The notes beneath the pieces are model-generated. The model was not told the DNA's origin. It saw only the letters and a program-made list of their open reading frames with translations, and searched no databases. A stretch of DNA of 64,000 nucleotides, taken from assembly GCA_003551425.1 (NCBI GenBank), contig PUMP01000059.1:1369-65368 (forward strand), read 5' to 3'. Every line of letters begins with the position of its first letter. Positions within the stretch are counted from its first letter, which is position 1. Positions 4,029 through 60,920 of this stretch are shown piece after piece. This stretch comes from Candidatus Nealsonbacteria bacterium. Its GTDB lineage: Bacteria; Patescibacteriota; Minisyncoccia; Minisyncoccales; PWPS01. The position numbers were made by a program, and so were the translations under genes.

Positions 4029-4115
4029 CGGAGGGGGTGGGATTCGAACCCACGTGCCCTTTAAGAGCCAATCGCTTTCGAGGCGACGCCGTTATGTCCG
4101 CTTCGGTACCCCTCC
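4029..4115 (-). tRNA. tRNA-Ser(CGA)
   Basis: Acceptor GGAGGGG/CCCCTCC with discriminator G, anticodon loop CTCGAAA, long variable arm, T-loop TTCGAAT. Confidence 0.88.
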
Positions 4116-4130
4116 ACGGCAAAAATAAAG

Positions 4131-4204
4131 TGGACCCGATCGGACTTGAACCGATGGCCTTTTGCGTGCCACGCAAACGCTCTAGCCAGCTGAGCTACGG
4201 GCCC
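4131..4204 (-). tRNA. tRNA-Ala(GGC)
   Basis: Acceptor GGGCCCG/CGGGTCC carries the G3:U70 alanine identity pair. Anticodon loop GTGGCAC. Confidence 0.9.
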
Positions 4205-15941: not shown

Positions 15942-16380
15942 AGAAGAAATGAAAAAGATTATTTTTGAGTTCTTCCGTCTCATTGATCCCGATATAAGGG
16001 TGGATTTTCCTGCTTCTGAAGAGAATACGATTAATGTCTGTGTAAAAATAAAAGATCCCGAGTCTTTGATAGGAGAAAAAGGAAGAACCCTGGTTGAGAC
16101 GGAGAGATTATTCAAGATTATAGCAAGAAAGAAGAGCAAGGACCCTCTTTTTGTAAACCTTGATATTAACGATTATAAGAAGAGAAAAGGAGACCAATTA
16201 AAAGAGCTTGCAAACAGTACGGCAGACGAAGTCTCTCTTACCGGGATAGGAAAAAAATTTCCTCCCATGTCTGCTTACGAAAGGAGGATTATTCATATGG
16301 CGCTTGCGGAGAGAGAAGACGTGCTAACAGAGAGCGTAGATGAAGGTTCTCAGAGAAGAGTTGTTATCAAAAAGAGCTAG
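15925..16380 (+). CDS. jag: Jag-like KH/R3H RNA-binding protein
   Basis: KH-like 'LIGEKGRTL' and R3H 'MSAYERRIIHMALAE..DVLTES.DEGSQRRVVI', located after yidC. Confidence 0.8.
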   Translation: MKNMHKEEMKKIIFEFFRLIDPDIRVDFPASEENTINVCVKIKDPESLIGEKGRTLVETERLFKIIARKKSKDPLFVNLDINDYKKRKGDQLKELANSTADEVSLTGIGKKFPPMSAYERRIIHMALAEREDVLTESVDEGSQRRVVIKKS

Positions 16381-18194
16381 TCTTGCAGATCTTTTCCTTT
16401 CTCCTCTTTTATCCTTTCCAGTTCTTCCGGAGAAGATGTTATAATCTGGTCTTCCGTGTAAGATGCATTAATCTCGATAACCACCCTCTTTTGGCCGGCA
16501 AAAAAGATACCTTCTCCTATCTGTCCCTCTAAGAGAACAAATTTTTCTTCATCTGTGAGACTGAAAGTCTTTTGAACTTTGTCAATTACCGCGGATGACT
16601 GTTTAAGAAGTATTTTTAAAGCAGAGTTAGTGACGATCGGCTTACCGTATTCGGACTTCATAAAGTCGGCGACATCTTGGGTTATGGTCGTAACCCCTAG
16701 CCAGTATTTCCTTGACCTTTTGACAAGGCCAAAGAGGAAAGACGCTCCGTCTTCGGTTTGCATCATCCACCAAGCTTCATCTACCACAAGGATACGTTTT
16801 TTTGTTGCGGAAGTCACTGCTTTCCATATGTAACGCATGATAATGAACATTGCCATAGTTCTAAGCTCTTCCTCCAAATTTCTTATTCCAAAGACAGAAA
16901 GATTTCCTTCAAGCTTGACATTGGAGTATTGGTTGAAGAACTTTGCGTAAGTTCCTCTTGAAAACTTTCGAAGACGAAGAATAAGTGATCTTGTTCCTTC
17001 CATTGACTCTAAAACCTCTTCCAGGTCAGAAAAGAGAGGTACTTTTTCCTCCCAAGTATCGGGATCACTGTCTGCCGTTATGTCTTTTGCGGCGTAAGTT
17101 GCAATAATTGCTTGATCTATAATTGCGTCTTCTTCAGGAGTTAATCCCCCAAGCATAATCCTCAAGAGACCAACAAGATTAATCGTATTTGTCCTTAAAA
17201 CCTCCTCTGCCGTTTCTCCTTCCTTGGGAACGGGGATATCAAAGGGATTTATGTGATTATCTGATCCGAGAGAGATATCGTAGAAAGAGCCTCCGGCTGC
17301 TTCAGCCAATGTTTTATATTCATTTTCCGGATCAATAACAATTGCCTCTGTTCCCGTCATGAGCGACCTTAAAAGGGCTAACTTTACAAGATACGATTTT
17401 CCTGACCCCGCTGTGCCGAAGACTACTTCGTTGGGATTTTCAAGATCAAAACGGTCAAAAAGTACAAGAGAGTTGTTGTGCTTATTGATTCCGTATAAGA
17501 TGCCGTCATTAGAGCTGAGCTCGGAAGAGATAAAGGGGAATATACTGGAAAGAGGCTCCGTGTTCATGGGGCTGTGAGTCTGAAGAACATCTCTTCCGTA
17601 CGGAGAGGTGCTGATAAAGCCACTCTTTTGCTGGAAAAGCGCGGACTTGAGATAAACTACTTTAGATTCCAGAATTGATCTTAAGACAGTTTCCGTGTCT
17701 TCCAGGTCTTTTTCAGTCTCTCCATAGATGGTGATATAAAATCCAAACTGAAACATTCTTTCTTGCGCTGATTGAAGCCTGTTTCGCAAGTCTTCCAGGT
17801 CTTGGTGGGCTGTTTCTAGTGCAGGGTCACGAACCATGCCCTTATCTTCATTCTCCATTATCTCTGCCTGTACTTCGGTAAGCTTCTTTCTTAGTTTTTT
17901 AAGGACTTGTGTTGTATCTACGGCGTGGATGAAGAACGCTATATCCATCGGAGCATTTAAGTTAATAATTGAAATTAGCCAGCCGCTTGTTAAATAGTGA
18001 GGATAAGAGAAAACGAAGAAAGAGCGAGAAGTCTTTTCTCCTATCTTAAGCTCTCCCTGTTTTTCTTCTATAAAAGAAGGAGCGATAATATCTTTTATCT
18101 CAAAGAAATCATCCTCCTCTTCTTCAGTAGAAGATTTCTTTTGGGGAATGTCGAGCCCAAACATCTTTTTAAAGTTTTCTATAAAGTTTGACAT
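16377..18194 (-). CDS. VirB4/TrbE-family type IV secretion ATPase, C-terminal 605-aa portion
   Basis: Walker A 'VVFGTAGSGKSYLVK' and Walker B 'ILVVDEAWWMM' (the VirB4 DEAW signature). 'YPHYLTSGWLISIINLNAPMDIAFFIH' is typical of Gram-positive VirB4 (PrgJ/TcpF-like) middle regions. Confidence 0.8.
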   Translation of the reverse strand: MSNFIENFKKMFGLDIPQKKSSTEEEEDDFFEIKDIIAPSFIEEKQGELKIGEKTSRSFFVFSYPHYLTSGWLISIINLNAPMDIAFFIHAVDTTQVLKKLRKKLTEVQAEIMENEDKGMVRDPALETAHQDLEDLRNRLQSAQERMFQFGFYITIYGETEKDLEDTETVLRSILESKVVYLKSALFQQKSGFISTSPYGRDVLQTHSPMNTEPLSSIFPFISSELSSNDGILYGINKHNNSLVLFDRFDLENPNEVVFGTAGSGKSYLVKLALLRSLMTGTEAIVIDPENEYKTLAEAAGGSFYDISLGSDNHINPFDIPVPKEGETAEEVLRTNTINLVGLLRIMLGGLTPEEDAIIDQAIIATYAAKDITADSDPDTWEEKVPLFSDLEEVLESMEGTRSLILRLRKFSRGTYAKFFNQYSNVKLEGNLSVFGIRNLEEELRTMAMFIIMRYIWKAVTSATKKRILVVDEAWWMMQTEDGASFLFGLVKRSRKYWLGVTTITQDVADFMKSEYGKPIVTNSALKILLKQSSAVIDKVQKTFSLTDEEKFVLLEGQIGEGIFFAGQKRVVIEINASYTEDQIITSSPEELERIKEEKGKDLQD

Positions 18195-32207: not shown

Positions 32208-35087
32208 TTAGAACTTAAAATCTAAATCAGAGATGTCCGGAGTTTCTTCCTTTTTCTTTGGAGAAGGGGGAGTCTCTTCTTCCTCCTCTTCCTCTTCTTC
32301 CTCTTCCTCTTCTTCATCTTCCCCCTCCTCTTCAGGCTCTTCTATTTCTTCCTCGCTTTCTTTTGCTTTTTCGTCATTTTCTTCTAATTTTTTTCTGTCC
32401 AGTTCTTCTCTATATTTATCTTCTTCCTCCTCTTCATCTTCTTCCTCCTCTTCTTCTGCCTCTTCCTCTTCTATGTCTTCATCATCATCTAGCACTTCCT
32501 CTTCTTCCGGCTCTTCTTCTGTTATTATCGACTCTTCTTCCTCTTCGCCCTTTACGGACTGCTCCAGCTCTCCTATCTCTTCTCGAAGCTCCGCTTCTCT
32601 TTTTTGAATAAGGTCGAATCCTTGTTTTTCTTTTTCAATTTCCGCCAATCTATTCTCTAACTTCCATATCTCCTTTTCTTTATCGCGCTTTTCTTCTTCT
32701 ACCTCCCATCTTTTTTCTTCTACTTTCTTTTTTTCTCCGGGATCTTCGATGTATTGCTCTTCTTCCTCTATGTCATCCATGCGACTTTTAATTTCTTCTT
32801 TGCTCTTCTTCATCTCTTCAAGAGATTCTTTTATTTGAGTTTCTTCATCAATTAATTTCTCGCTTTTTTCTTCTATTCTGCCCCTAATTGTTTGTACTCT
32901 TTTCAGTTCTTTCTTCTTTTGTTTTGCTTTCTCTGTCTTCTCTATATTTTCCTCTTTTACCGCAAGAGAACTTTCTTTCTTCTTTAACCTTTCTTCTTCG
33001 TTTAGTATTTGCTGGTAATGCAGTTCGGAAGCGTACAATTGTTCTTCAATCTTTTTAACTCTTTTTTGCAAGCCCCACTTTTCTTTTTCAATATCTCTTC
33101 TTTTTTCTTCTATCATCCATCTTTCTTTTTCTTTTTCCCTCCTTTCTTCTGTAGTTTTGGCTGACGATTCCTCTTTCTCAATCTTCTTTTTCCTGTCTTC
33201 TACCTCTTTCTCCCTTTCGAGCGTAATATTTAATTTTTCTTGAAGATGATCTTTCTTCTCTTTCGTTTTAGCTGTCTTTAAATCAAGACCCTTTCTTTCC
33301 TCTTTGATAGAACTTATTTTTTCTTTTATTTTTGCTCTTTCCAGTGAGACTTTTACCCTTTTTTCTTTCTGAGACAACTCTTTCCACCTTTCATGAACTC
33401 TTTTTTCTTTATTGGAGATTCTCCACTTTCTTGTGTGTGTTTGGCGGCTTCTTTTTTTTATTTCATTTAATCTTTCCTTGATGTCCCATATCTTTCTTTT
33501 AGCCTCTCTTATTTCTTCTTCTACCTCCCATCTGTTCTTTTCAATCTCACTTTTTTCCTCCGGGTTGTATGCTATTTTTTCTTTTGACTCGATATCATCC
33601 CTCTTTCTTTCAATATATCTTTCTTCTTTATAAGCTTCTTCTAGCTTTCTTTCGCTCACTTTTTCTTTCTGTGAAAGCTTATCTGCCTCAATCTCTAAGA
33701 GCTTTCTTTCTTCTCGCAAGTCGTAGAATTGGTCACTTAACTTTTCTTTTAATAGTTCTATCTTCTCCAAGTGAAGTTCTTTTTTTTGTACCGAGGAAAG
33801 AGTTTCATCTTGTAAGCCAATAGCGATCTCCCTTTCTTTTCTCTTAATATTTCTTTCTCTTTCTCTTTCTTCTTTTCTTTTTTGCAACTCTTCTTCTTTT
33901 TTTCTTATAAGCTTCTCTTGTTTATTGATTTTCTCTAACCCTTTTTCGGTGTCACTTAGCTCTTTTTCCATGTCCCATCTCTCTTTCTCTATGTTTCTTC
34001 TTTTTTCTTCTATACTCCACCCTCTTTCGGTTAATTCCTTTTCTTCGCCCGTCCCCTTTGCAATGCTCTCCTCTTTTTTAATACTGCTCTTTTTACTCTC
34101 TATCTCTTTTTCTTTCTCTTTTATTTCTTTTAATTTATCTGAAAGCTCTATTCTTCTTGCAAGAAGATTCTCTTTCTCTTCTTTAAGAGATTCTTTTTTT
34201 TCGGTTATTTTTTCTTCGAGATCACCTGCCGGTATTTTTTCTTCTTTCTCTAGAGGAGTCTTTGTTTCTTCCCTTGCTTTTACTTCTCTTATCTCGTCTT
34301 CTTTTTCTTGCAGCTTTTCAATCTCTTCTCCAAGCTCTTCCAATCGATTGGTTGCTTTTTCAATCTTTTCTCTTGCAGCGGCAACCTCTTCTTCTTTTTG
34401 CCACCTTTCTTCTTCTATTTTTTTTCTTTCGTCTTCTATCTTCCACCTTTCCTCCTTAAGTTTCTTTTTTTTGGAAAAGTCTTTTTCTATTTCTTCTTTT
34501 TTTTCCAGGTCTCTTTCTTTTTTTTCAATTGTTTTTTCTTTCTCTTTTATTTCTCTTAGCCTTTCTTTTATTTTTTTCTCCTCGCTAACCAATGATTTTT
34601 TTTCTTTAAGAAGAAGATTCCCTTCCTTTTCTTTCTTCTTTATTTTTTCTTCAATTTGTTCTCCCTCTGTTTCTTTTTGGTCTTTTTGATCTTTTTCAAG
34701 TTTTTGCTCTTCTTCTTTCTTCTTTTTCTTAAGCTCTTCTCTCTCTTGCCTTAAAGAGCTTATTTGTTTTTCTACTTCTTCAACCTTACTTTCCCAGTTC
34801 CAACGCTCTTTTTCGATGTCTTTTCTTTTGTCTTCAACTCTCCATCTTTCTTCGCTTATTTTCTTTTTTTCTTTCTCGTCTTTTGTTTTTTCTCCCTGCT
34901 CTTCTATCTCTTTTTCTTTATCCTCTATCTCTCTTTCTTTTTTGGTTATAAGGTTGAGGCTTTTTTTAATTTGCTCTTTCTTTTCCGTAGCGCTGGCAAT
35001 GTTAACTTCTAGCTCTTCAAGCTTTTTTTCCAGCTCTTTTAATTTATTGTTTTTTTCTTCCAAGTTATTATTGTTTGAATTTATCAT
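32208..35087 (-). CDS. Giant Glu/Lys-rich coiled-coil protein (959 aa) with six W-x13-W motif units and a poly-acidic tail
   Basis: Uninterrupted 959-codon frame, whereas antisense frames are fragmented. The motif 'ERW.[IV]E[ED][KE]R[KR].IEKE[RK]W' occurs at W82/96, 215/229, 357/371, 520/534, 657/671 and 794/808. Confidence 0.7.
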   Translation of the reverse strand: MINSNNNNLEEKNNKLKELEKKLEELEVNIASATEKKEQIKKSLNLITKKEREIEDKEKEIEEQGEKTKDEKEKKKISEERWRVEDKRKDIEKERWNWESKVEEVEKQISSLRQEREELKKKKKEEEQKLEKDQKDQKETEGEQIEEKIKKKEKEGNLLLKEKKSLVSEEKKIKERLREIKEKEKTIEKKERDLEKKEEIEKDFSKKKKLKEERWKIEDERKKIEEERWQKEEEVAAAREKIEKATNRLEELGEEIEKLQEKEDEIREVKAREETKTPLEKEEKIPAGDLEEKITEKKESLKEEKENLLARRIELSDKLKEIKEKEKEIESKKSSIKKEESIAKGTGEEKELTERGWSIEEKRRNIEKERWDMEKELSDTEKGLEKINKQEKLIRKKEEELQKRKEERERERNIKRKEREIAIGLQDETLSSVQKKELHLEKIELLKEKLSDQFYDLREERKLLEIEADKLSQKEKVSERKLEEAYKEERYIERKRDDIESKEKIAYNPEEKSEIEKNRWEVEEEIREAKRKIWDIKERLNEIKKRSRQTHTRKWRISNKEKRVHERWKELSQKEKRVKVSLERAKIKEKISSIKEERKGLDLKTAKTKEKKDHLQEKLNITLEREKEVEDRKKKIEKEESSAKTTEERREKEKERWMIEEKRRDIEKEKWGLQKRVKKIEEQLYASELHYQQILNEEERLKKKESSLAVKEENIEKTEKAKQKKKELKRVQTIRGRIEEKSEKLIDEETQIKESLEEMKKSKEEIKSRMDDIEEEEQYIEDPGEKKKVEEKRWEVEEEKRDKEKEIWKLENRLAEIEKEKQGFDLIQKREAELREEIGELEQSVKGEEEEESIITEEEPEEEEVLDDDEDIEEEEAEEEEEEDEEEEEDKYREELDRKKLEENDEKAKESEEEIEEPEEEGEDEEEEEEEEEEEEEETPPSPKKKEETPDISDLDFKF

Positions 35088-35099
35088 GAGCCAAAAACC

Positions 35100-37358
35100 T
35101 TAAGAAATTACTTTTTGAAGTTCGTTTGTTATTTTTTTTGCAATTTCCGCAAACCTTTCTTCAAGAACTTCACTGTCTTTCTCTTTCTCCATCATTGTTT
35201 CTGTCTTCTTTTTTTCTTTCTCCAGAGAGATTAACTGTTCCTTGTCTTTAAAGCTTTCTTTCTCTTTGCTTAATTTATCTTCTTCTTCCGATATTTGCTT
35301 GTACTGTGATTCTATTTTTTTCTGAAGGTTTTCCATTTCTCTTATCTTTTCCTGGAGCTTCCATTTTAAGCTCTCTATTTCTCTTCTCTTGTCTTCTAGC
35401 TGCCATCTCTTCTTTGTCTCATCCTTTCTTTCTTTTGAGTTAATATCCATTGTCTCTATTTTATCTTCCATCCATCTTATTTGTTCTTCAACCTCGCTCT
35501 CATTTTTCATTATATCTCTTAATTTTTCTTCACTTTCTTTCTTCCTCTCTTGTAGTTGCCTTTTTTTCTTATCAAGAATTTCTCTTTTTTTCTTAAGCTC
35601 TTCTTCCCTTTCTCTTATCTTCTCCCTTCTTCCCTCCATCTCCATCCACTCCAAAAGCTTAGAGGCAAGATCTTTTTCTTTATCGTGCATATTTTCTTTT
35701 TCTTCCATCAATCTATCATATCTTTTCTCCATCTCTTTCCTTTCTTTTGTAACATTGTTTAATTTTTCTTGGATGTCCAAAGATTCTTTTTCCACGGCTC
35801 TTCTTTTTTCTCCTATTTCCCACCTTTTCTTTTCCATCTCTCTTACTTCTTGAGGGTCCTTTGCTGTTCTTTCTCTTTCTTCGATATCTTCTTTCTCTTT
35901 CTTCATCTGTTTTTCTTTTTCATAAACTTCGTTGAGCTCTCCTTTGATCTCTCTTTCTTTTTCCAAGGGAGCCTTTAAATCTCTCTTAATCTCTTTCTTT
36001 TTTTCTATCGTCTCACAGATAGCGCCTAAAAGATCTATTCTGTTTATGACTATCTGTTTTCTGTATCGGGGGTCTCTTAAAAGAAACTCTTTTCTTTTAA
36101 GGGAAATGAAGCGCTTTTTCTCTTCAATCTGCTCTTTCTCTTTTGCTCTTTTTTCCTTTTCTTTGTTTAGGGCATCTTCTGCGGCGGTGGTTCTTTCTTG
36201 AAAAGCTTTTTCATTTTGCCGTATCTCTTTTTTAAGTGACTCTATTTTTTCTTTTAGAGAAGTACTTTTGCCTTCAATTATCTTTATTTTCTCTTTTGTT
36301 TTTTTAATTTTTTCCTGCCACTCCCAAGCCTCTTCTTTGACTTGTTTCTTTTTCTCTTCGATCCTCCATCTTTCACTTTCAAGTTCCTCTAGCTCTTTGC
36401 TATCCTCTGTTTTCCCCGTTCTTTCTTTTATGTCTAAAAATCTTTCCTTTATGTTTTTATCTACTTGGATAATTTTCTTTAACTTGTCTTTTGCTCTTTT
36501 TTCACGAGCTTGAAGCAGTCCTATTATTTGTTCGTAAAAATTATTTTTCTTTTCTAGAAATCTTATTTTGCTTTGAGGTATGAGGATAGAAAGCTTAAGA
36601 CCCAAAGCCTCTCTTTCCACCTTTATTATCTCGGCTTTTCTCTTTGCTCTTTCTTCTTTTATATCACAAAGGAGTTGCCTTAACTCAAGAGATTGTATTC
36701 CTTTTTTAATTTGAATTATTTTTTCTTCTATTTCCCAGCTTATTCTACTCGCTTCTCTTTCTTTTCTGCTTATCTCTTCTTCTTTTCTTTCAAGGTCTTC
36801 CTGTCTTTCAGGGCTTTGTGCCGCCACTTTCATCTCTTTTATCTTTTCTTTTTGCGTCTTTATCTTTGTTTCCTTTGATTTTACAACGCCTTTTTTCTCT
36901 TCCAGCTTTATAATGTTCTTTTTTGCAAAGTTATTCTTTAGCTCGAGAGATTTTCTTTCTTTTAACACCTCTTCCAGTAGCTGGTTGTTTCTTTCTTGCT
37001 CTTGTCTTTTTTCTTCAATTTTTCTTTTGGTTGCTTCTATTTTATCCTTTACGGACTCTTTTATCCCTTGTCTTGTTTTTTCAATATTTTTTATCCACTC
37101 TTCTTTTTCTTCCTTTTCAATCTTTCTTATTTTATTTTCTTCCTCCAGTCTTGCTTGCCTTTTTTCTTCCTCTTTTCTTTTTTCTTCTTCTCTTATTATT
37201 TCTTCTTCTTTCTTTTTGTCTTCTTCACTTTTCTTTTGCGTTCCTTTCTGCGGGGGTTTGGATTGTTGAGCCACGTCTTTTTTTCCTCCTGTCTTGGCAA
37301 GTAAAAGGTCCTTTTTCATCGTCCTAATCTCTTGTGTGGTGTCTTTATTTTCTTCCAT
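35100..37358 (-). CDS. Giant Glu/Lys-rich coiled-coil protein (752 aa), paralog of the downstream gene
   Basis: The same motif occurs: 'SERWRIEEKKKQVKEEAW' (W331/345) and 'KKRWQLEDKRREIESLKW' (W652/666), with degenerate copies at W208 and W513. There is no TM or signal peptide. Confidence 0.7.
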   Translation of the reverse strand: MEENKDTTQEIRTMKKDLLLAKTGGKKDVAQQSKPPQKGTQKKSEEDKKKEEEIIREEEKRKEEEKRQARLEEENKIRKIEKEEKEEWIKNIEKTRQGIKESVKDKIEATKRKIEEKRQEQERNNQLLEEVLKERKSLELKNNFAKKNIIKLEEKKGVVKSKETKIKTQKEKIKEMKVAAQSPERQEDLERKEEEISRKEREASRISWEIEEKIIQIKKGIQSLELRQLLCDIKEERAKRKAEIIKVEREALGLKLSILIPQSKIRFLEKKNNFYEQIIGLLQAREKRAKDKLKKIIQVDKNIKERFLDIKERTGKTEDSKELEELESERWRIEEKKKQVKEEAWEWQEKIKKTKEKIKIIEGKSTSLKEKIESLKKEIRQNEKAFQERTTAAEDALNKEKEKRAKEKEQIEEKKRFISLKRKEFLLRDPRYRKQIVINRIDLLGAICETIEKKKEIKRDLKAPLEKEREIKGELNEVYEKEKQMKKEKEDIEERERTAKDPQEVREMEKKRWEIGEKRRAVEKESLDIQEKLNNVTKERKEMEKRYDRLMEEKENMHDKEKDLASKLLEWMEMEGRREKIREREEELKKKREILDKKKRQLQERKKESEEKLRDIMKNESEVEEQIRWMEDKIETMDINSKERKDETKKRWQLEDKRREIESLKWKLQEKIREMENLQKKIESQYKQISEEEDKLSKEKESFKDKEQLISLEKEKKKTETMMEKEKDSEVLEERFAEIAKKITNELQKVIS

Positions 37359-40251: not shown

Positions 40252-40324
<73 letters not shown>

Positions 40325-40341
40325 AAATCAAACAAAGCAGC

Positions 40342-40854
40342 TTAATCTTCTTCTATCGTACAATCTATTTTATAAATCCCCTCATCCCACCAGTCTTCAA
40401 ACCCCCAGCTGTCTTCTTCCGTCATTCCCATACCTTCAAGAATAAGCCCTACTGTGACCCATGCGGTGTAAGCGATAAGAACGCCGGCGATAGCTACAAG
40501 GATAACAGTTCTTCCTTTTTTATATCCCTCGGGATTGGCAGAGTTCGTATAAAGCGTGATTCCACCGAAGATTATAAGGATAATGGCGGCTGCGGGAATC
40601 ATTCTTGTCATAAAGAAATCGACTACATTGCCGAAAATTACAAACAAGTGGCATAACTGACAGTCCGGCAAATGATCTTCGGGTCCGCAAGGAACAAGCC
40701 CGACACTGACATCATAACATGTACTGTCATGCCAATGATATCCTGCCTCTTCACACTCTTCTTTGGTGTTAAGGCCCTCAACCTCGTAATTTGCCAAGGC
40801 AAGAAGGGGAAGAGCCATGAAAAGAAGAACAACTATCAATATCCTTTTTAGCAT
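40342..40854 (-). CDS. Secreted 'LVPCG'-type pilin-like protein (170 aa)
   Basis: Signal peptide, a Cys-rich head, then 'GLVPCG......C.LCHLFVIFGNVVDFFMTRMIPAAAIILIIFGGITLYTNSANPEGYKKGRTVILVAIAGVLIAYTAW'. This is the same module as the C-terminus of the 1032-aa protein. The tail is Trp-rich, 'WGFEDWWDEG'. Confidence 0.6.
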   Translation of the reverse strand: MLKRILIVVLLFMALPLLALANYEVEGLNTKEECEEAGYHWHDSTCYDVSVGLVPCGPEDHLPDCQLCHLFVIFGNVVDFFMTRMIPAAAIILIIFGGITLYTNSANPEGYKKGRTVILVAIAGVLIAYTAWVTVGLILEGMGMTEEDSWGFEDWWDEGIYKIDCTIEED

Positions 40855-40917
40855 TTGGTAATTATAATCTTTTTTAACAAAAAATCAAAGGGCGCTTTTT
40901 CTAAAGGCTTAACTTTG

Positions 40918-40991
40918 TACCCCGGGAGGGATTCGAACCCCCAACCTGCGGTTCCGAAGACCGACGCTCTATCCAGTTGAGCTACCGGGGC
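40918..40991 (-). tRNA. tRNA-Arg(TCG)
   Basis: Acceptor GCCCCGG/CCGGGGT (G1:U72), anticodon loop CTTCGGA, T-loop TTCGAAT. Confidence 0.82.
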
Positions 40992-44039: not shown

Positions 44040-44115
44040 CGGGCCGTGGTGTAACGGCTAACATGCACGATTCGGGTTCGTGTGATTCCGGGTTCGAATC
44101 CCGGCGGCCCGACCA
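44040..44115 (+). tRNA. tRNA-Pro(CGG), CCA encoded
   Basis: Acceptor CGGGCCG/CGGCCCG, anticodon stem CACGA/TCGTG with loop TTCGGGT, T-arm CCGGG-TTCGAAT-CCCGG. Confidence 0.9.
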
Positions 44116-44119
44116 CGAT

Positions 44120-44194
44120 GGGCCCATAGCTCAGACAGGCTAGAGCGCTTGCTTCGCATGCAAGAGGTCGCCGGTTCGATTCCGGCTGGGTCCA
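44120..44194 (+). tRNA. tRNA-Ala(CGC)
   Basis: Acceptor GGGCCCA/TGGGTCC with G3:U70, anticodon stem CTTGC/GCAAG with loop TTCGCAT. Confidence 0.9.
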
Positions 44195-46069: not shown

Positions 46070-46145
46070 CGGGGCATGGTGTAACGGCTAACATGCTCGC
46101 TTTGGGTGCGAGTGATTCTCGGTTCGAATCCGAGTGCCCCGACCA
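46070..46145 (+). tRNA. tRNA-Pro(TGG), CCA encoded
   Basis: Acceptor CGGGGCA/TGCCCCG, anticodon stem CTCGC/GCGAG with loop TTTGGGT. The D-arm region is identical to that of tRNA-Pro(CGG). Confidence 0.9.
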
Positions 46146-46156
46146 AAGAAAGAAGT

Positions 46157-46228
46157 GCGGGCGTTGTATAATGGCTATTACCCAACCCTTCCAAGGTTGT
46201 GATGGCGGTTCGAATCCGCTCGCCCGCT
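46157..46228 (+). tRNA. tRNA-Gly(TCC)
   Basis: Acceptor GCGGGCG/CGCCCGC, anticodon stem CAACC/GGTTG with loop CTTCCAA, T-loop TTCGAAT. Confidence 0.88.
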
Positions 46229-53606: not shown

Positions 53607-54140
53607 ATGATTTATTACTTAAAAGGAGAAATAGTTATAACCGAAAAAGATTTTGTTGTTGTCGATGTAAACGGAGTTGGCTACAAGGTGTTTGTTGCTT
53701 CCAGTGCTGTGCTTTCCAAGAAAGTTATTCTTTACTGTTATATGCAAGTAACGGATAAAGGGTTTCGTCTTTACGGCTTTGAGAATAAAGAAAACTTGGA
53801 TTTTTTCGAGAAGCTGATGAACATATCGGGAATCGGACCCAAGACAGCCCTTCGGATCGCTTCTATAGCGCCAATGGAAGAGATGAAGGAGGCCATAAAG
53901 AGAGAAGATGAAGAAATAATGAAAGAGATCTTCAGTATCGGAGAGAAAAAGGGACAGCAGATAGTTTTTGAACTATCACGTAAATTTATAAAAGAACCGG
54001 AAAAAGACGAAGTATTTGAAACATTACAAGAGCTTGGATTTTCACAAGCAAGAATAAAAGAAGTATTAAAAAAGGTTTCTTGTGATAACAGTAAAGAAGA
54101 AAGAGTTAAGGAAGCCTTAAAAATACTGGGAAATGCTTAA
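53607..54140 (+). CDS. ruvA: Holliday junction DNA-binding protein RuvA (short, 177 aa)
   Basis: 'MIYYLKGEIV......VVVDVNGVGYKVFV' and the HhH motif 'F..L..ISGIGPKTALRI'. It lies ~46 kb from ruvB/ruvC. Confidence 0.8.
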   Translation: MIYYLKGEIVITEKDFVVVDVNGVGYKVFVASSAVLSKKVILYCYMQVTDKGFRLYGFENKENLDFFEKLMNISGIGPKTALRIASIAPMEEMKEAIKREDEEIMKEIFSIGEKKGQQIVFELSRKFIKEPEKDEVFETLQELGFSQARIKEVLKKVSCDNSKEERVKEALKILGNA

Positions 54141-55395
54141 AAGAATATTACAAAAAATCAGACCTCTTGTTAGTGCTTATCACTTTCTTTTTTCTTTTTT
54201 GGGAGCGGCTTATTACCGTTTTCCCTCTTCCAAAATAAAAGTTTTTGCCGTGACGGGAACCAACGGAAAAACTACTACCGTAGACCTTGCGTCTCGTATA
54301 TTCAAAGAGGCCGGATATAAGGTGGCCGCTTTTTCTTCGGTAAAATTTGAAATTGCGGGTGAAGAGAAAAAAAATCTTTTCAAAATGACAATGCCGGGAA
54401 GAGCGGTTATCCAATCGCTTCTCAGGAAAGCGGTCAGTAAAGGCTGTGAAGTGGCGATAATGGAAGTTACATCGGAGGGGATTAAGCAACATCGCCACCG
54501 TTTTATAAATTTTGCCGCTGTTTGCTTTACTAATCTTTCTCCGGAACATATTGAGTCGCATGGAGGGTTTGAAAACTATAAGAGAGAGAAGGGTAAACTT
54601 TTTAAAGCGGCAAAGACCACTCATATTATAAATACTGACGACGAGCACTCAGGTTATTTTCTCGGTTTTAAGAGTAAGGAGAAAATTTGTTATGGAGCAA
54701 GGGGCGTATCACCGAGAGAAGACTGCAGAGCGCTTCGTGCCACCGATATAAAATCCTCCTATGACGGTATAAATTTTGTGGTAGAAAGCACGAGCTTTAA
54801 CCTTAAATTAAAAGGTTCTTTTAACGTTTATAATGCTCTTGCCGCTACTTCTTTTGCTTCGCTTGAAGGAATAAAGCTGGAAGTAGCGGCAAGAGCTCTT
54901 TCTAATGCAAAAGTAATTCCGGGAAGGATGGAAGAAATCATTTCTTCTCCCTTTAAAGTGATTGTGGATTATGCAGTTACTCCTGTTACATTGGAAGCTG
55001 TTTATAAAGAGATTAGCGACCATTTTGACCACGAGAGAATAATCGCTGTTTTAGGATCGTGCGGTGGCGGGAGAGACAAGTGGAAAAGGCCTGTACTAGG
55101 AGAGATTGCCGCGGAATATTGTGACCGAATTATTGTTACCAATGAAGATCCTTACGACGAAGATCCCGAAGAAATAATTGAAGAGGTTATTTCCGGTACA
55201 AAAGGAAAAGGGGAAAAAATAATAGACAGAAGGAAAGCAATAGGAGAAGCAATTAAGGGGGCGAGAGAAAGAGATGTAATAATTGTTACCGGAAAAGGGA
55301 ACGAACCTTGGCTTTGCCTTGAGGGAGGGAAGAAGATACCGTGGAGTGAGAAAGAGGTAATAGAGGAAGAGTTCAATAAAAATGCTAATAAGTGA
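54133..55395 (+). CDS. Mur ligase family protein (MurE-like, lacking the usual N-terminal domain)
   Basis: P-loop 'VTGTNGKTTT', 'NLSPEHIESHG', 'DYAVTP', and 'TNEDPYDEDP' in the position of the MurE DNPR motif. Confidence 0.65.
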   Translation: MLKRILQKIRPLVSAYHFLFSFLGAAYYRFPSSKIKVFAVTGTNGKTTTVDLASRIFKEAGYKVAAFSSVKFEIAGEEKKNLFKMTMPGRAVIQSLLRKAVSKGCEVAIMEVTSEGIKQHRHRFINFAAVCFTNLSPEHIESHGGFENYKREKGKLFKAAKTTHIINTDDEHSGYFLGFKSKEKICYGARGVSPREDCRALRATDIKSSYDGINFVVESTSFNLKLKGSFNVYNALAATSFASLEGIKLEVAARALSNAKVIPGRMEEIISSPFKVIVDYAVTPVTLEAVYKEISDHFDHERIIAVLGSCGGGRDKWKRPVLGEIAAEYCDRIIVTNEDPYDEDPEEIIEEVISGTKGKGEKIIDRRKAIGEAIKGARERDVIIVTGKGNEPWLCLEGGKKIPWSEKEVIEEEFNKNANK

Positions 55396-56806
55396 TTTTA
55401 AAAAAGTAGATGATTATCTTTGGGAAATTCCCAAAGATCGCCGCAGGGATATGCTTGTTCCCGCAAGAGTGTATGCAACAGAAGAAATATTGGAAGCGAG
55501 CTTGCAGGACAGATCGTTGCAGCAGCTGGTGAATCTTACTACACTCCCCGGAATAGAAAGATATGCGATTGCAATGCCTGACATTCACGAAGGTTATGGC
55601 TCTCCTATCGGGGGTGTAGTTGCTACCGACGCAAACAAGGGGGTAATATCTCCCGGGGTTGGTGGTTATGACATAAACTGTGGAATGCGGCTTTTTGCAT
55701 CAAGTGTCTCTGAAAACGAGGCAGCACCGCATTTAGAAGAATTGGCTGGCAAATTGCAAAGAGAGATTCCTTCCGGATTGGGAAAGGGAAGAAAATTAAA
55801 ATTTAACTCTTTTCAAATGAACTTATTACTTGAAAAGGGAGTGGATTACTTGATAGAGGAAGGATATGGCACAAAAGAAGAAGCGGAGCTTTGTGAAGAA
55901 AAAGGAAGAGTAGAAGATGCAAATCCTTCTGCTATTTCGGAAAAAGCAAAAAAGAGAGGAGCAGATCAAGTGGGAACTTTGGGCTCCGGAAATCATTTTT
56001 TGGAGATACAAAAAGTAGAGGAAGTCTTTGCAAAAGAAGAGGCAGAAACGATGGGTGTCTTCAAAGGGCAAATAATGATTATGGTTCATTCCGGATCACG
56101 AGGGCTTGGGCATCAAGTCGCCAGTGAAAATATTGACGCAATGGGGCGTAAAATGAGAGATTACGGCATTACTGTTCCCGACAAGGAGCTTGTTTGTGCT
56201 CCTTTTCTTTCTAAAGAAGGAAAAGAGTACAAGGAGGCCCTTTCCGGCGCCATGAACTATGCTTTTGCCAACAGGCATATGATTGGTCACTTTATTCACA
56301 GAGCGTGGGAAAAAGTTTTTGAAAAAGAGGCCCTTAATATGATTTATGATGTTGCGCATAATACGGTAAAACTGGAAAATCACTACGGAAAGAAGCTTCT
56401 TGTGCACCGAAAAGGAGCAACCGAAGCTCTCCCACCGGGAGATGAAAATATTCCGGAGAAGTATAAAAAGACAGGACAGCCGGTAATTATTCCCGGCTCT
56501 ATGGGAACAGCTTCTTATCTCTTGTGCGGAGCGGAAAAGGCAAGAGAAACATTTTATTCCGTCTCCCATGGAGCAGGAAGAAAAATGTCCAGAAAAGAGG
56601 CGGTTCGAAGAGTGGGAGAAGAGGATATAGTAAAGGAACTGAAAAAGAAAGGAATTATCATAAAGTCGTTCTCGAAAAAAGGAATTGCCGAAGAGGTGCC
56701 TTTTGCGTATAAGGATATAAATAAGGTGGTAAATGTGATTTGCGGTGCCGGTTTAGCCAAGAAAGTAGCAAAAATTGTCCCTCTCTTTGTGATAAAGGGG
56801 GAGTAA
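55382..56806 (+). CDS. rtcB: RNA-splicing ligase RtcB
   Basis: 'MPDIHEGYGSPIGGV', 'GYDINCGMR', 'GSGNHFLE', 'HSGSRGLG' and 'SVSHGAGR'. Confidence 0.92.
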   Translation: MLISDFKKVDDYLWEIPKDRRRDMLVPARVYATEEILEASLQDRSLQQLVNLTTLPGIERYAIAMPDIHEGYGSPIGGVVATDANKGVISPGVGGYDINCGMRLFASSVSENEAAPHLEELAGKLQREIPSGLGKGRKLKFNSFQMNLLLEKGVDYLIEEGYGTKEEAELCEEKGRVEDANPSAISEKAKKRGADQVGTLGSGNHFLEIQKVEEVFAKEEAETMGVFKGQIMIMVHSGSRGLGHQVASENIDAMGRKMRDYGITVPDKELVCAPFLSKEGKEYKEALSGAMNYAFANRHMIGHFIHRAWEKVFEKEALNMIYDVAHNTVKLENHYGKKLLVHRKGATEALPPGDENIPEKYKKTGQPVIIPGSMGTASYLLCGAEKARETFYSVSHGAGRKMSRKEAVRRVGEEDIVKELKKKGIIIKSFSKKGIAEEVPFAYKDINKVVNVICGAGLAKKVAKIVPLFVIKGE

Positions 56807-56811
56807 TTATT

Positions 56812-56840
56812 TTGACAAGGACGGTATAAAGAATTAGAAT
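56812..56840 (+). promoter_or_regulatory. Candidate promoter (TTGACA-17-TAGAAT)
   Basis: Exact hexamers at 56812..56817 and 56835..56840, upstream of a small basic ORF and the Nif3-like gene. Confidence 0.45.
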
Positions 56841-56872: not shown

Positions 56873-56998
56873 ATGAAAAAGAAAAGAATCCCTAGAAGCA
56901 TCCGGAAACACATTAGAAAAGAGAAAGCTCGTATCAGAAAGGATGCCGTAAACAAGGAAGAAAAAATAAAAGAACTTTTAAATAAGTTTAATTTATGA
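56873..56998 (+). CDS. Small basic hypothetical protein (41 aa; below the ORF-track cutoff)
   Basis: Hand translation gives MKKKRIPRSIRKHIRKEKARIRKDAVNKEEKIKELLNKFNL*. The stop overlaps the next ATG (ATGA). There is no strong RBS. Confidence 0.3.
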   Translation: MKKKRIPRSIRKHIRKEKARIRKDAVNKEEKIKELLNKFNL

Positions 56999-57942
56999 AA
57001 ATAAAAGAAATATATAATTTAGCCGTAAAAGAAGGAATAGAAGCCGACTTTAGAGGGAAAGAAAAAATCTCTTGGCTTCTCGACAGAAAGAGGAAGAAGT
57101 TTGAAAAGATGAGTGAAGAACAGAAGGAAGAGTTTGACCAAGAAAAACTAAATAATCCTTTTACCGATACCCGTATTCTTGCTGGAGATGAAGAAAAAGA
57201 AGTCAAGAAGATCATGGTAGGTATTGATATTGACGGGGAAGAACTTCTCCTGGCTAAAGAATTGGGAGATATAGATTTGGTCATTTCCCATCATCCACGA
57301 GGGAAAGCTCTTGCCGGACTGGATGATGTAATGGAGCTCCAAGCAGATCTTCTTCATGATTACGGAGTTCCTATTAACATAGCGGAAAAGCTTTCAAAGA
57401 AGCGAATTCAAGAAGTTTCTCGCGGGCTTGCTCCCGGAAATCATAACAGGGTAGTAGATACGGCAAACCTTTTGGGAATTCCTTTGATGTGTATACATAC
57501 GCCCGCTGATAATCTTGTAGCAAAATTTGTAGAAGAAGAGATTAAAAAGAATAACCCTTTTTTGGTGGAAGATGTAATGAAAGCACTCAAAGGAATAGAA
57601 GAATATCGCAGGGCGATTGCCATAGGAATTGGTCCTAGGCTTTTTGCCGGCAAGGAAGAAGACAGAGTAGGGAAAATAGCGCTTACGGAGATTACGGGAG
57701 GCACGGAAGGGTCTTCTCACATCTATGAGCACCTTGCAAGGCAAGGAATAGGGACCGTTGTTGGAATGCATATTTCGGAAAAGAGTCGCGAGGAGGCTGA
57801 GAAGGCGCATATTAACGTAGTTATTGCGGGCCATATTTCTTCCGATTCTATCGGAATGAATCTTTTTCTTGATTTACTTGAAAAAGAAGGATTAAACATA
57901 GTCCCTTCTTCGGGGCTTATAAGGGTCTCAAGGCAAAAGTAA
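56995..57942 (+). CDS. Nif3-like (YbgI/DUF34) dinuclear-metal-centre family protein
   Basis: 'DLVISHHP', 'IHTPADN' and 'AGHISSDSIGMN' loosely match the Nif3 metal-binding His/Asp pattern. The assignment is tentative. Confidence 0.45.
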   Translation: MKIKEIYNLAVKEGIEADFRGKEKISWLLDRKRKKFEKMSEEQKEEFDQEKLNNPFTDTRILAGDEEKEVKKIMVGIDIDGEELLLAKELGDIDLVISHHPRGKALAGLDDVMELQADLLHDYGVPINIAEKLSKKRIQEVSRGLAPGNHNRVVDTANLLGIPLMCIHTPADNLVAKFVEEEIKKNNPFLVEDVMKALKGIEEYRRAIAIGIGPRLFAGKEEDRVGKIALTEITGGTEGSSHIYEHLARQGIGTVVGMHISEKSREEAEKAHINVVIAGHISSDSIGMNLFLDLLEKEGLNIVPSSGLIRVSRQK

Positions 57943-58745
57943 TGCGTCTTTTCTTAGTAGAGCTTTTTCTTTTTTCGGTCACTTTACTCTTAGGAATTTT
58001 AGTTTCTTTTCGGCTTGATAAAGCTCTTGTGGTAGAAGGATCTGTCGCTCCGATGGGAGCGATTTTTTTATACTTTATACTGGCAACTCTATTTATTCTT
58101 TTTTTTATAAAGAAAGGAGGAGAAAGAAAAACTTTTTTCTTTCGTTTAGCATTTTATCTGGCTGTCTTTTTTGGAGGACTAATTACACTTTCTAGCTTTT
58201 TAGAAAATTATGCTTTTATTTTTCTCTTCCTCCTTCTTTTTATTTTTACCGTTAAGCCGATTATTTTAGTACACAATATTTGTATTATTATCGGCATTTC
58301 CGGGGTAGGCGCGATGGCCGGTCTTTCTTTCTTACCGCAACAGATTGCAATATTTATGGTTTTGCTCTCTTTTTATGATGTGATTGCGGTATACAAGACA
58401 AAACACATGATAAAAATGGCCAAAGAAATGATTGCTGCACGTTCTTTAATGGGGATGATTATCCCTTTTCATTTACGGGACTTTCTTTCAACAAGCAAGA
58501 AATTTTTTATTTTAGGAGGAGGAGACGTTATGATTCCGCTTATTTTTGCTGTTTCTTTTGTCCCTCAAAATAGTGTTTATCCTTTTGTTATTTTTCTTTT
58601 TTCAATTCTTGGTCTTTTCTTCTCTTTTCTTATTTTTATATCACTCTCACGTCCTATTCCCGCGTTACCCCCGATAGTACTTTTCCTTCTTTTGGGATAT
58701 CTTTTTATTGAGCTTCAGGTTCTTTATCATATAGGTATCCTTTAG
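57942..58745 (+). CDS. Presenilin/signal-peptide-peptidase-like GxGD intramembrane aspartyl protease (A22 family)
   Basis: About 8-9 TM helices. The three signature motifs occur in the correct order: 'SFYDVIAVY' (YD), 'ILGGGDVMIP' (GxGD) and 'PIPALPPIV' (PAL). Confidence 0.6.
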   Translation: MRLFLVELFLFSVTLLLGILVSFRLDKALVVEGSVAPMGAIFLYFILATLFILFFIKKGGERKTFFFRLAFYLAVFFGGLITLSSFLENYAFIFLFLLLFIFTVKPIILVHNICIIIGISGVGAMAGLSFLPQQIAIFMVLLSFYDVIAVYKTKHMIKMAKEMIAARSLMGMIIPFHLRDFLSTSKKFFILGGGDVMIPLIFAVSFVPQNSVYPFVIFLFSILGLFFSFLIFISLSRPIPALPPIVLFLLLGYLFIELQVLYHIGIL

Positions 58746-60260
58746 GCGATATCCGGATTTTCTCCAGTAATCTCTTGCGCCAATTCCGGAGATTACCGTA
58801 ATGCGGTCTTTTTTGAATTCATCTTTTACTATTTTTTCTGCTCTTTTGATTAACTTTTTGCCGAGCCCTTTATGCTGAGGAGATGCTGCACCTTTATTCT
58901 TTATTAAGAGTTGTTGCCCGTAAGTGTGTATTTCTCTTATAACCCCTGAGCTTTTTAGTACCGAAAAAACTGAATCTTCTACCTTTCTTAATCTTAATAT
59001 AGCAAAAAGCTTATTTCTGCTATCGTTTTCTATGCTGAGAAAAACCTCTTTTCCTTCTGACGCAAAATAATCTTCTCGGAAAATCTTTAGTTTCTCTTTC
59101 GGATTATATTCTCCCCTTACTTCTCTGCAACGGATACACTTACATCTCCAATTTTCTTTTTCGGCTTCTTTTATAATATTTTCCCTTAAGTTAGATATTT
59201 TTGAGCCTGCAATGATACTTTGTGAAGGAATGTCCCGAAAAAGCCTTTGTATTCTCACATAGCGCGGAATAAATTCTCTTTTTATCTTTTTGATTATCCC
59301 TACAAGTTCTTTATTAGTAAAAGCACGGTATTCCCCTTTTTGCCAAAGAGAGTATAGGGGAGCTTCTTTTAACACGGCGCAAGGGTATATCTTTAAAAAA
59401 TCAGGGCGAAAAGATGAGTCTTCAAAGAGTTGTCGGAAGGTTTCAACGTCTTTTTTTACGCTACTTTGTGGAAGGTTGAGCATTACTTGATGACAAACCT
59501 TAAAACCGGTGTCTTTTAAAAGTTTTGTTGCTTTTTTTGTGTCTTCCACTTTGTGCCCTCTTTGATTGAAATCTAATACGTCATCAAAAAGTGACTGAAT
59601 GCCAAGCTCAACCATGGTAACTCCCATGGAGCGCATCCTTTCAATCTCTTCTTTGGTGATAAAATCGGGCCTAGTCTCTACGGAAAGACAGATAATACGA
59701 TGCTTTGCTTTCTCGTTTCTTTTTTGGGCTTCTGCTAGGTTTTTGCTGTTTCTTCTATTGCACGCGTCAAAGCATTTTTTGATAAAGCTTTCTTGGTATT
59801 TTTTAGGATAAAAAGACCACGTTCCTCCTATAACCCTTAATTCTATTTTATCCGTAGGATGCCCTGTCTTTTGTAAAGACGAGATCCTTGTTTTTACTTG
59901 TTCTTGAGGGTTATAACTATTTCTTACCGCACGCATTACGGCCGGCTCGTTCTGGAGATAGCTTTTCGGTACTCCTTCCTGAAACGGGCAGTAAAGACAT
60001 CTCCCTGGACAAGGAAAGGGCTTGGTAAGAACAGATATGTTTACTACTCCGGACAGGGAGCGAACGGGCCTTGTTCTCAGCAAAGAAACCACTCGTTCGT
60101 CTCTTTTTTTATTTTTATGATAAACTTGAAGAAGGTCCGTATTGGTAGGAAAAGAGGCTTTATGCTTTTTGGCCACTTCTCTTTTTATCCGGTTTAGATC
60201 CTTTATATTGGTCGCCTCTTCTTCAATTATTTTTTTAATTATTTCTTTTTCGATGCTCAT
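58665..60260 (-). CDS. elp3: Elp3-family radical-SAM / GNAT tRNA U34 cm5-modification enzyme
   Basis: Radical SAM 'CPGRCLYCP' (CxxxCxxC), 'RVIGGTWSFYP', 'ETRPD' and a C-terminal GNAT 'HKGLGKKLIKRAEKI'. It is 531 aa, like archaeal and Dehalococcoides Elp3. Confidence 0.8.
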   Translation of the reverse strand: MSIEKEIIKKIIEEEATNIKDLNRIKREVAKKHKASFPTNTDLLQVYHKNKKRDERVVSLLRTRPVRSLSGVVNISVLTKPFPCPGRCLYCPFQEGVPKSYLQNEPAVMRAVRNSYNPQEQVKTRISSLQKTGHPTDKIELRVIGGTWSFYPKKYQESFIKKCFDACNRRNSKNLAEAQKRNEKAKHRIICLSVETRPDFITKEEIERMRSMGVTMVELGIQSLFDDVLDFNQRGHKVEDTKKATKLLKDTGFKVCHQVMLNLPQSSVKKDVETFRQLFEDSSFRPDFLKIYPCAVLKEAPLYSLWQKGEYRAFTNKELVGIIKKIKREFIPRYVRIQRLFRDIPSQSIIAGSKISNLRENIIKEAEKENWRCKCIRCREVRGEYNPKEKLKIFREDYFASEGKEVFLSIENDSRNKLFAILRLRKVEDSVFSVLKSSGVIREIHTYGQQLLIKNKGAASPQHKGLGKKLIKRAEKIVKDEFKKDRITVISGIGARDYWRKSGYRLKDTYMIKNLKLNKKISQKKEKYYRG

Positions 60261-60920
60261 ATGAAAAAAAAGGAAGCAAAATTTTTAATGGAAAGGCTGC
60301 GGGAAGATTATAACTCTTTAGCCCCTTCTTTTTCAAGGACTCGCGATTCTCTGTGGCCGGAACTAAAGTTCCTTTTTGATCGTGCGCGGTCGGGAGAAAA
60401 AGTACTGGACTTGGGTTGCGGAAATGGGCGTTTTTCTCAGTATCTTGAAGAAAGCGATTATGTAGGAGTTGACTTTTCGGATAAGATGATTGAGGAAGCG
60501 AAAGCACGTTTCCCGAAAGAAAAGTTCTTAGTGGCCGATGCTCTTTCTCTTCCCTTTTCTGAAAACTCTTTTCATAAAGTGTACAGCATTGCTCTTATTC
60601 ATCACGTGCCTTGTGATGATTACAGGTTACAAGTTTTCAAGGAGATTAAAAGAGTTCTAAAGCCGGGAGGTTATACTTTTATTACTGCTTGGAATATAGA
60701 AAAGGGATTTCTTTTTTATTTAAAAAATATTTTTTGCAAACCTTTTGGCGCTCGTGATACTTTTTTAAAAAGGGAGAAATATTATTATATTTTTCGCAAA
60801 GAAGAGCTTTCTTTGCTGGCAACAAAGGCAGGCTTTAAAGTAATGGAAGAGGGTGTTGTAAAAACTAAAGGTAGAAATAATTTTTATCTTATTGCTTTTA
60901 AAGAAAATTCTTCTGTTTGA
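60261..60920 (+). CDS. Trm9/ALKBH8-like class I SAM methyltransferase
   Basis: 'DYNSLAPSFSRTRDSLWPELKFLF' compares with yeast Trm9 'VYNEIAPHFSQTRYKPWPIVTQFL' (recalled from memory). Also 'VLDLGCGNGRF', 'SIALIHHV' and 'YYYIFRKEEL'. Confidence 0.6.
   Translation: MKKKEAKFLMERLREDYNSLAPSFSRTRDSLWPELKFLFDRARSGEKVLDLGCGNGRFSQYLEESDYVGVDFSDKMIEEAKARFPKEKFLVADALSLPFSENSFHKVYSIALIHHVPCDDYRLQVFKEIKRVLKPGGYTFITAWNIEKGFLFYLKNIFCKPFGARDTFLKREKYYYIFRKEELSLLATKAGFKVMEEGVVKTKGRNNFYLIAFKENSSV

Follow-up and report, generated by a model that had tools for sequence, protein, structure and literature searches.

The stretch of DNA analysed here, 64,000 nucleotides from a Candidatus Nealsonbacteria bacterium (contig PUMP01000059.1, positions 1,369 to 65,368; referred to below as the window), carries on its forward strand, at 57942..58745, an open reading frame (ORF) which starts with ATG and is listed with a product of 267 amino acids. 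With a probability that we put at roughly 0.87, this ORF encodes a stand-alone intramembrane aspartyl protease of the GxGD type, related to the archaeal presenilin/signal peptide peptidase homologue (PSH), and is a conserved chromosomal gene of the housekeeping type in a bacterium of the Patescibacteria, also known as the candidate phyla radiation (CPR). The original prediction had claimed a GxGD protease of the presenilin/signal peptide peptidase (SPP) type in a bacterial genome, and this claim is supported by sequence profiles, by the match to PSH in the PDB, by the predicted fold and by the bacterial gene context. Profile searches, PDB sequence comparison, AlphaFold2 modelling and Foldseek all assign the gene to the PSH type (PF06550, MEROPS family A22), and nine transmembrane (TM) helices are predicted for its product.

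Family assignment and conserved motifs

PF06550 ('SPP', the PSH-type presenilin and SPP homologues) was the sole Pfam family with a significant match to the 267-residue protein, at 36.0 bits (E=7.2e-9; gathering score 23.9) over profile positions 4-275 of 283. With the NCBIfam model of archaeal PSH, NF041679, the score was 57.3 bits (E=1.8e-15), where the equivalog cutoff is set at 125 bits, and the distance between these two values points to membership in a distinct bacterial subfamily. In a phmmer search of all PDB sequences the crystallised PSH of Methanoculleus marisnigri (4hyc_A) was matched with E=2e-8, YD, GxGD and the PAL region being aligned without shift, each residue to its counterpart, and BLASTP gave 29% identity with PSH across TM5-TM9. 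When a profile made from 75 CPR homologues was compared with the PDB, PSH was the only match (83.5 bits, E=1.6e-22), and alignment of this profile by hhalign with 23 Methanomicrobiales PSH sequences yielded a probability of 99.3% and E=3e-20 over 253 columns. All 75 homologues matched PF06550. The search with A22-type profiles that had been proposed as a check was thus significant with Pfam, where the score exceeded the cutoff, as well as with NF041679 and in the profile-profile alignment.

A GxGD motif in a polytopic membrane protein is also found in the other GxGD clan, that of the type IV prepilin peptidases and FlaK (MEROPS A24), which are common in bacteria and with which the protein could have been confused. 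A match to Peptidase_A24 (PF01478) was sought in the Pfam scan of the protease and none was obtained even at E<=1; moreover, the YD and PAL motifs and nine TM helices are present, and neither a prepilin peptidase nor FlaK is among the structural matches listed. On the Pfam scan and the Foldseek comparison an A24 identity was ruled out, and we give it practically no credence. Among the models of the eukaryotic branches, PF04258 (SPP/SPPL) matched neither the protease nor any of the 75 homologues, and PF01080 (presenilin) did not match the protease and matched one of the 75 homologues, at E=0.0014. Judged by its sequence, the protease is best filed as a PSH-type family member in a distinct Patescibacteria subfamily, and not as PSH proper, as a presenilin, as a eukaryotic SPP or as an A24 enzyme. 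It displays every sequence and fold feature of PF06550/A22 that was tested.

The translation of the ORF includes LLSFYDVIAVY, FILGGGDVMIPLIF and RPIPALPPIV, the three stretches that had been quoted for the YD, GxGD and PAL signatures. The YD motif, Y145-D146 (TAT GAT, 58374..58379, forward strand as for all motifs), lies in predicted TM6, is aligned with Y161-D162 of PSH and contains the predicted first catalytic aspartate. It is followed at the cytoplasmic end of TM6 by A149-M156 (AVYKTKHM, 58386..58409), a sequence typical of PF06550 and aligned with S165-M172 (SVYRTKHM) of PSH. The GxGD motif, G192-G193-G194-D195 (GGA GGA GGA GAC, 58515..58526), contains the predicted second catalytic aspartate and is aligned with G217-M218-G219-D220 of PSH. 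Directly before TM9 stands the PAL(PP) motif, P240-A241-L242-P243-P244 (58659..58673), which is aligned to AGLPP of PSH; the codons of its first three residues are CCC GCG TTA (58659-58667). The codons and the translation agree with the original prediction also in that YD, GGGD (residues 192-195) and PAL (residues 240-242) follow each other in the canonical order along the protein.

The conservation alignment was made with 75 homologues which share 40-51% identity with the window protein. The residues that are invariant in this alignment include Y145, D146, V150, T153, H155, M156, G192-D195 and P240-P244, and A149, Y151, K152 and K154 are at least 90% conserved; the VY(K/R)TKHM motif after TM6 is common to the bacterial homologues and archaeal PSH. 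The invariance of the aspartate dyad and of the supporting motifs indicates that both are strongly constrained, which speaks for catalytic activity, and from these sequences the bacterial presenilin relative is probably active. Presenilins and PSH have been reported to act as channels, and it is conceivable that the protein has kept the presenilin fold mainly to serve as a cation leak channel or a scaffold, proteolysis being secondary or lost. The fold of presenilin is likened to that of ClC channels in one article (PMC4918416). Against a channel or scaffold as the main job stands the invariance of both aspartates, of the full GxGD and of PALPP in 75 sequences at this level of identity, which is the conservation pattern of a catalytic site, and we regard such a role as very improbable.

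Predicted structure and comparison with known proteases

The structure was modelled by AlphaFold2 with the alignment of the 75 homologues (mean pLDDT 91.4, pTM 0.89). The model contains helices at residues 2-29, 38-56, 61-104, 108-128, 132-153, 193-204, 213-235 and 242-263, of which the one at 61-104 is long enough for both TM3 and TM4, giving a total of nine TM helices. An amphipathic helix (155-165) and then a beta-hairpin (171-175/188-192) precede the GxGD motif. In the model D146 is inside TM6 (132-153) and D195 is at the start of TM7 (193-204); the two aspartates are thus on adjacent TM helices, and on such a placement the original prediction had been made to depend. The PALPP motif (240-244) leads into the helix 242-263, which is TM9.

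When the model was compared with the PDB by Foldseek, the first match was PSH (4y6k_B, E=1.9e-6, TM-score 0.62/0.66), in agreement with the suggestion that the structure be superposed on that of the archaeal protein. The top 24 matches were all A22 proteins (PSH, SPPL2a and presenilin-1), including human SPPL2a (9k93, TM-score 0.70) and many presenilin-1 chains (6idf_B, 0.69), and unrelated folds appeared only from E>0.6. The Foldseek probability was 1.00 for PSH, SPPL2a and presenilin-1, and the TM-scores in the top 20 ranged from 0.57 to 0.70.

Of the known proteins, PSH of M. marisnigri (MCMJR1; 4HYC, 4HYG, 4Y6K; NF041679) is the best match to the window protein both in sequence and in structure. 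The two proteins have in common PF06550, nine TM helices, YD on TM6, GxGD on TM7, a PAL-type motif before TM9, VY(K/R)TKHM, a short TM6-TM7 loop and a predicted orientation with the N-terminus inside. Apart from the low identity over TM5-TM9, the window protein differs from PSH in having GGGD instead of GMGD and PALPP instead of AGLPP, in being shorter (267 versus 301 amino acids), in having almost no N-terminal tail and in its host, a CPR bacterium instead of a methanogen. The annotated Patescibacteria proteases are 39-51% identical to it over at least 90% of the length; the invariant motifs are shared, and in many cases so is the gene neighbourhood. Unlike most of these relatives, the window protein lacks an N-terminal tail of about 17 residues, and it extends about 7 residues further at the C-terminus.

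Human presenilin-1 (6IDF, 6IYC) has the same fold (TM-score 0.63-0.69), the YD, GxGD and PALP motifs and the same predicted orientation. In contrast to presenilin-1, the window protein gives no sequence-profile match and does not have a long TM6-TM7 loop, so that endoproteolysis presumably does not occur; the partners of presenilin-1, nicastrin, APH-1 and PEN-2, are not expected in bacteria. Eukaryotic SPP and SPPL2a (9K92, 9K93; PF04258) also have the same fold (TM-score 0.68-0.70) and act as stand-alone enzymes, and the window protein shares with SPP a proline four residues after the GxGD aspartate. It differs from SPP in the PAL region (PALPP versus QPALLY), in the lack of a PF04258 match and in the predicted orientation, which is opposite.

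Orientation and proposed mechanism

The orientation in the membrane was deduced by the positive-inside rule from the mean number of lysines plus arginines per loop in the 75 sequences. The means were 2.7 for the N-terminus, 4.2 for loop 2-3, 8.7 for loop 6-7 and 1.4 for loop 8-9, and, on the other side, 0.9 for loop 1-2, 0.0 for loop 3-4, 0.5 for loop 5-6, 0.1 for loop 7-8 and 0.0 for the C-terminus. The archaeal PSH group showed the same pattern. This distribution of charges would place the N-terminus and the TM6-TM7 loop in the cytoplasm and the C-terminus outside; it predicts an N-in/C-out orientation, like that of presenilin and opposite to that of eukaryotic SPP, whose topology is N-out/C-in.

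By analogy with PSH, presenilin and SPP, D146 and D195 would activate a water molecule within the membrane, and a single-pass substrate would thereby be hydrolysed at a peptide bond of its TM helix. This substrate would enter laterally, unwind and pair with the beta-strand preceding GxGD, and the PAL region would shape the active site. As in PSH, neither partner subunits nor activation by endoproteolytic cleavage would be needed; we expect such a stand-alone enzyme because only about 40 residues make up the TM6-TM7 loop, which is similarly short in PSH, and because the host is a bacterium. Reasoning from the characterised relatives, we infer that the presenilin-like orientation may favour N-out/C-in helices, such as stubs left in the membrane by surface proteins, more than cleaved signal peptides.

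The enzyme could also be a true A22 protease that works as a signal peptide peptidase, clearing the N-in/C-out signal peptides that stay behind in the membrane once signal peptidase has cut, and replacing SppA/RseP in a reduced genome. Such a role would agree with the name and description of PF06550 in Pfam ('SPP'), with the discussion of archaeal members as candidate signal peptide peptidases (PMC8305020, PMC9263693) and with the location of the gene in a conserved housekeeping block (see below), which general clearance would fit. Since the positive-inside analysis gives the orientation of presenilin, the reverse of that of eukaryotic SPP, and since the model of eukaryotic SPP is unmatched, we consider this role unlikely, though it is one to be kept in mind.

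Several observations weigh against the view that the ORF encodes a stand-alone PSH-type protease acting in the way outlined. The score of the protease with NF041679 does not reach the equivalog cutoff, which makes the transfer of function from archaeal PSH less than straightforward. The link between orientation and substrate polarity is drawn by analogy with the eukaryotic enzymes, and purified PSH accepts various substrates in vitro. In the literature searched, no characterised bacterial member of A22 was found. The neighbouring genes were considered as a clue to the substrate or the pathway and were rejected, the synteny being that of housekeeping genes for DNA repair and replication, cell wall, RNA and transcription.

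Distribution of the family in Patescibacteria

A combined pattern and tblastn scan of one genome per GTDB species gave at least 599 candidate stretches, and relatives of the protease are encoded at at least 561 such stretches. According to the original prediction, the family is characteristic of eukaryotes and archaea and uncommon in bacteria. For the Patescibacteria the numbers given above contradict the rarity in bacteria; it is still a fair description of cultured bacteria and of the literature, in which the reviews read present A22 as a eukaryotic and archaeal family.

Locus comparisons were made with the best 80 loci of the scan. The host labels of these loci include Parcubacteria/Paceibacterota, Nealson-, Staskawicz-, Yanofsky-, Azam-, Uhr-, Falkow- and Buchananbacteria, and also 'Patescibacteria group', generic 'Saccharibacteria' bins and plain 'bacterium'. 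All informative labels belong to the Patescibacteria, save that of one contig (CAZPVP010000002.1, 'uncultured Gammaproteobacteria bacterium'). This candidate for a host outside the CPR was rejected: the neighbour genes match those of an Uhrbacteria locus at 62-87% identity and, in one weaker case, a Falkowbacteria locus; by this comparison the public metagenome-assembled genome is a mislabelled Patescibacteria bin. Many of the 'uncultured Candidatus Saccharibacteria' binchicken labels among the loci look generic.

In a large protein collection there were 927 significant matches among the candidates scored, and PF06550 was present in all 120 that were listed. Those of the listed matches that come with a source name are called 'presenilin family intramembrane aspartyl protease' by NCBI (Patescibacteria group bacterium / Candidatus Nealsonbacteria) or, by JGI, 'presenilin-like A22 family membrane protease'. 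When 1.84 billion representatives at 50% identity were searched exhaustively with the profile, the number of clusters matched was 1630 at E<=1e-3, 1118 at E<=1e-10 and 284 at E<=1e-30. Scaling from the 83.5-bit PDB match, we estimate that archaeal PSH would score between 1e-30 and 1e-10 with the CPR profile; if so, the bacterial-type clade would account for a substantial fraction of the diversity of the family. Of the best 120-150 matches listed, those of the window protein all came from CPR and those of PSH all from Methanomicrobiales, and a consensus query made with equal weights for CPR and archaeal sequences was mostly archaeal in composition.

Among the matches listed, the closest relative of the window protein is 51% identical, and clustering at 90% identity leaves the protein in a cluster of its own. 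An identical protein is already present in NCBI and in the Logan assembly of run SRR490150. By these sequence comparisons the window protein is a new sequence in a known, already annotated clade. Carriage of the protease by phages was looked for, and tblastn found no match in phage genomes.

Gene neighbourhood

The gene content of the window is bacterial, with genes for a class A penicillin-binding protein (PBP1a), PNPase, RNase Y, GreA, an M23 peptidase, RuvA, the delta subunit of DNA polymerase III (HolA), Fpg and a Mur ligase. The gene directly upstream of the protease, identified by Pfam, encodes NIF3/DUF34 (56995..57942, forward strand). Its TAA stop and the ATG of the protease gene share one base (TAATG), and this overlap suggests that the two genes are probably co-translated from one transcript. 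Upstream of NIF3 are an RtcB RNA ligase (55382-56806, forward strand, 534 bits) and, before it, a Mur ligase without the N-terminal domain (54133-55395, forward strand). A sigma-70-like site, TTGACA-17-TAGAAT, is found in the gap between RtcB and NIF3 (56812-56840), and is to be taken as weak evidence. Downstream, on the reverse strand, lies the gene for Elp3 (58665..60260), a radical SAM and GNAT protein of tRNA U34 modification, assigned by TIGR01211 (555.6 bits versus a cutoff of 350) and by its match to Elp3 in the PDB.

When the 80 loci were searched by tblastn with the window proteins, Elp3 and the Mur ligase were each found in 38, NIF3 and a methyltransferase each in 33 and RtcB in 28. 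NIF3 was located within 6 kb upstream of the protease and on the same strand in 33 of the 80. In nearly all loci that have these genes the order and the strands match the window: Mur ligase, RtcB, NIF3 and protease in one direction, followed by the convergent Elp3 and then the methyltransferase, which is divergent from Elp3. The conserved block comprises Fpg, HolA, RuvA, Mur ligase, RtcB, NIF3, Elp3, methyltransferase, GreA and an HD hydrolase. Where the gene order shared with the window is longest and extends to GreA and the HD hydrolase, the loci come mostly from Nealsonbacteria (three loci), which points to a host that is probably Nealsonbacteria-like.

The recurring synteny bears on the question of whether archaeal DNA has been misjoined to a bacterial contig, by chimeric assembly or by contamination of the bin. 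This could be suspected from the literature, which describes the family as archaeal and eukaryotic, and from the GC content of the gene, which at 0.338 is below the window mean of 0.389. The low GC content is, however, explained by the T-rich codons of a membrane protein rich in Phe, Leu and Ile. The ORF is coupled to a bacterial NIF3 gene and overlaps elp3, the same gene order occurs in dozens of independent Patescibacteria assemblies, and the independent Logan assembly of run SRR490150 has the same NIF3-protease-Elp3 junction. The synteny effectively refutes a chimeric contig, to which we assign a negligible probability.

The original prediction was also right in stating that the final 81 nucleotides of the ORF overlap the convergent elp3 gene: by the ORF coordinates the 3' ends of the two genes overlap at 58665..58745, and the TTA codon of Leu242 in the PAL motif is the antisense of the TAA stop of elp3. 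Elp3 is convergent to the protease in 36 of the 38 loci in which it was found. In 16 of these 36 the ends are at most 300 nucleotides apart, and in 5 they overlap by 4-28 nucleotides; the overlap in the window is the longest seen, at a junction that is habitually tight in the relatives. The protease is conserved to about residue 255 (nucleotide 58706), and Elp3 is conserved to residue 515 (nucleotide 58716), after which it has a 16-residue tail. Thus the conserved part of each gene overlies only the non-conserved tail of the other, and the 81-nucleotide overlap is accounted for by tail extensions, including the longer C-terminus of the protease, at a tight junction. No regulatory element was found in the overlap, nor a terminator-like site, and the predicted RNA folding of this segment was no better than that of shuffled sequences (z=0.09).

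Other features of the window

The S-adenosylmethionine-dependent methyltransferase divergent from Elp3 (60261-60920, forward strand) has as its best PDB match 5cm2_Z (E=1.3e-16 over residues 26-201 of 219), a 'tRNA methyltransferase' which we take to be the Trm9 subunit of Trm9-Trm112. Elp3 itself scored higher with 6ia8_A (436 bits), presumably the archaeal Elp3, than with 5l7j_A (388 bits), presumably that of Dehalococcoides. The Elp3 and methyltransferase pair is found in 33 of the 80 Patescibacteria loci, and these observations suggest a eukaryote- or archaea-style Elp3/Trm9 pathway of wobble-uridine modification, of the mcm5U (5-methoxycarbonylmethyluridine) type, in these bacteria. This segment of 6 kb, with RtcB, NIF3, Elp3, the Trm9-like methyltransferase and the PSH-type protease, is dense in genes that are better known from archaea and eukaryotes, and the bacterial PSH-type proteases lengthen the list of archaeal/eukaryotic-type genes in the Patescibacteria.

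Two adjacent giant ORFs on the reverse strand (32208-35087 and 35100-37358), of 959 and 752 amino acids, have no Pfam match; they are coiled-coil-like, with Glu plus Lys contents of 49% and 42%, and one has a poly-Glu tail. At 32-36 kb the GC skew (about -0.45) and the AT skew (about -0.57) are extreme, which can be attributed to these Glu/Lys-rich ORFs. A TraG/VirD4-like P-loop ATPase (16377-18194, reverse strand; PF19044, AAA_10, DUF87) hints at a module related to conjugation or type IV secretion near 16-18 kb, and the 12-16 kb region is low in GC (0.30-0.35). The window has 14 tRNA genes in small clusters (924-1261, 1999-2157, 4029-4204, 40252-40991, 44040-44194 and 46070-46228); besides these, neither rRNA nor any other Rfam family was found in it above threshold.

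Origin and significance of the bacterial branch

A more far-reaching proposal is that the PSH clade of the Patescibacteria is an old acquisition from archaea or a relic from before the split of the domains, and that it represents the first bacterial case of presenilin-type regulated or clearance proteolysis, cutting N-out/C-in helices. Its candidate substrates could be C-terminal stubs of shed or sorted surface proteins, such as the remnants of sortase-type processing, rather than signal peptides. No ORF in the window combines an LPXTG-like motif with a C-terminal TM helix, and the sortase-stub idea thus has no local support. We consider the proposal speculative and on the whole doubtful. If it is true, the 267-residue protease would be among the smallest presenilin homologues in nature and would be convenient as a model for structural work.

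For annotation, the identification of the PSH-type protease is a routine result, and the automatic label is right. Presenilin is the membrane-embedded protease known from Alzheimer's research, and when the literature was searched for presenilin homologues in connection with Patescibacteria, Parcubacteria or CPR, no such link was found and only papers on the gut microbiome and Alzheimer's disease surfaced. The family thus has a large conserved bacterial branch which is visible in annotation, has no mention in the literature searched and is confined, as far as seen, to the ultra-small Patescibacteria. The interest lies in this uncharacterised branch, in its origin and in its substrates, and its compact proteases, predicted to work without partners, could serve as model enzymes for the mechanism of presenilin.

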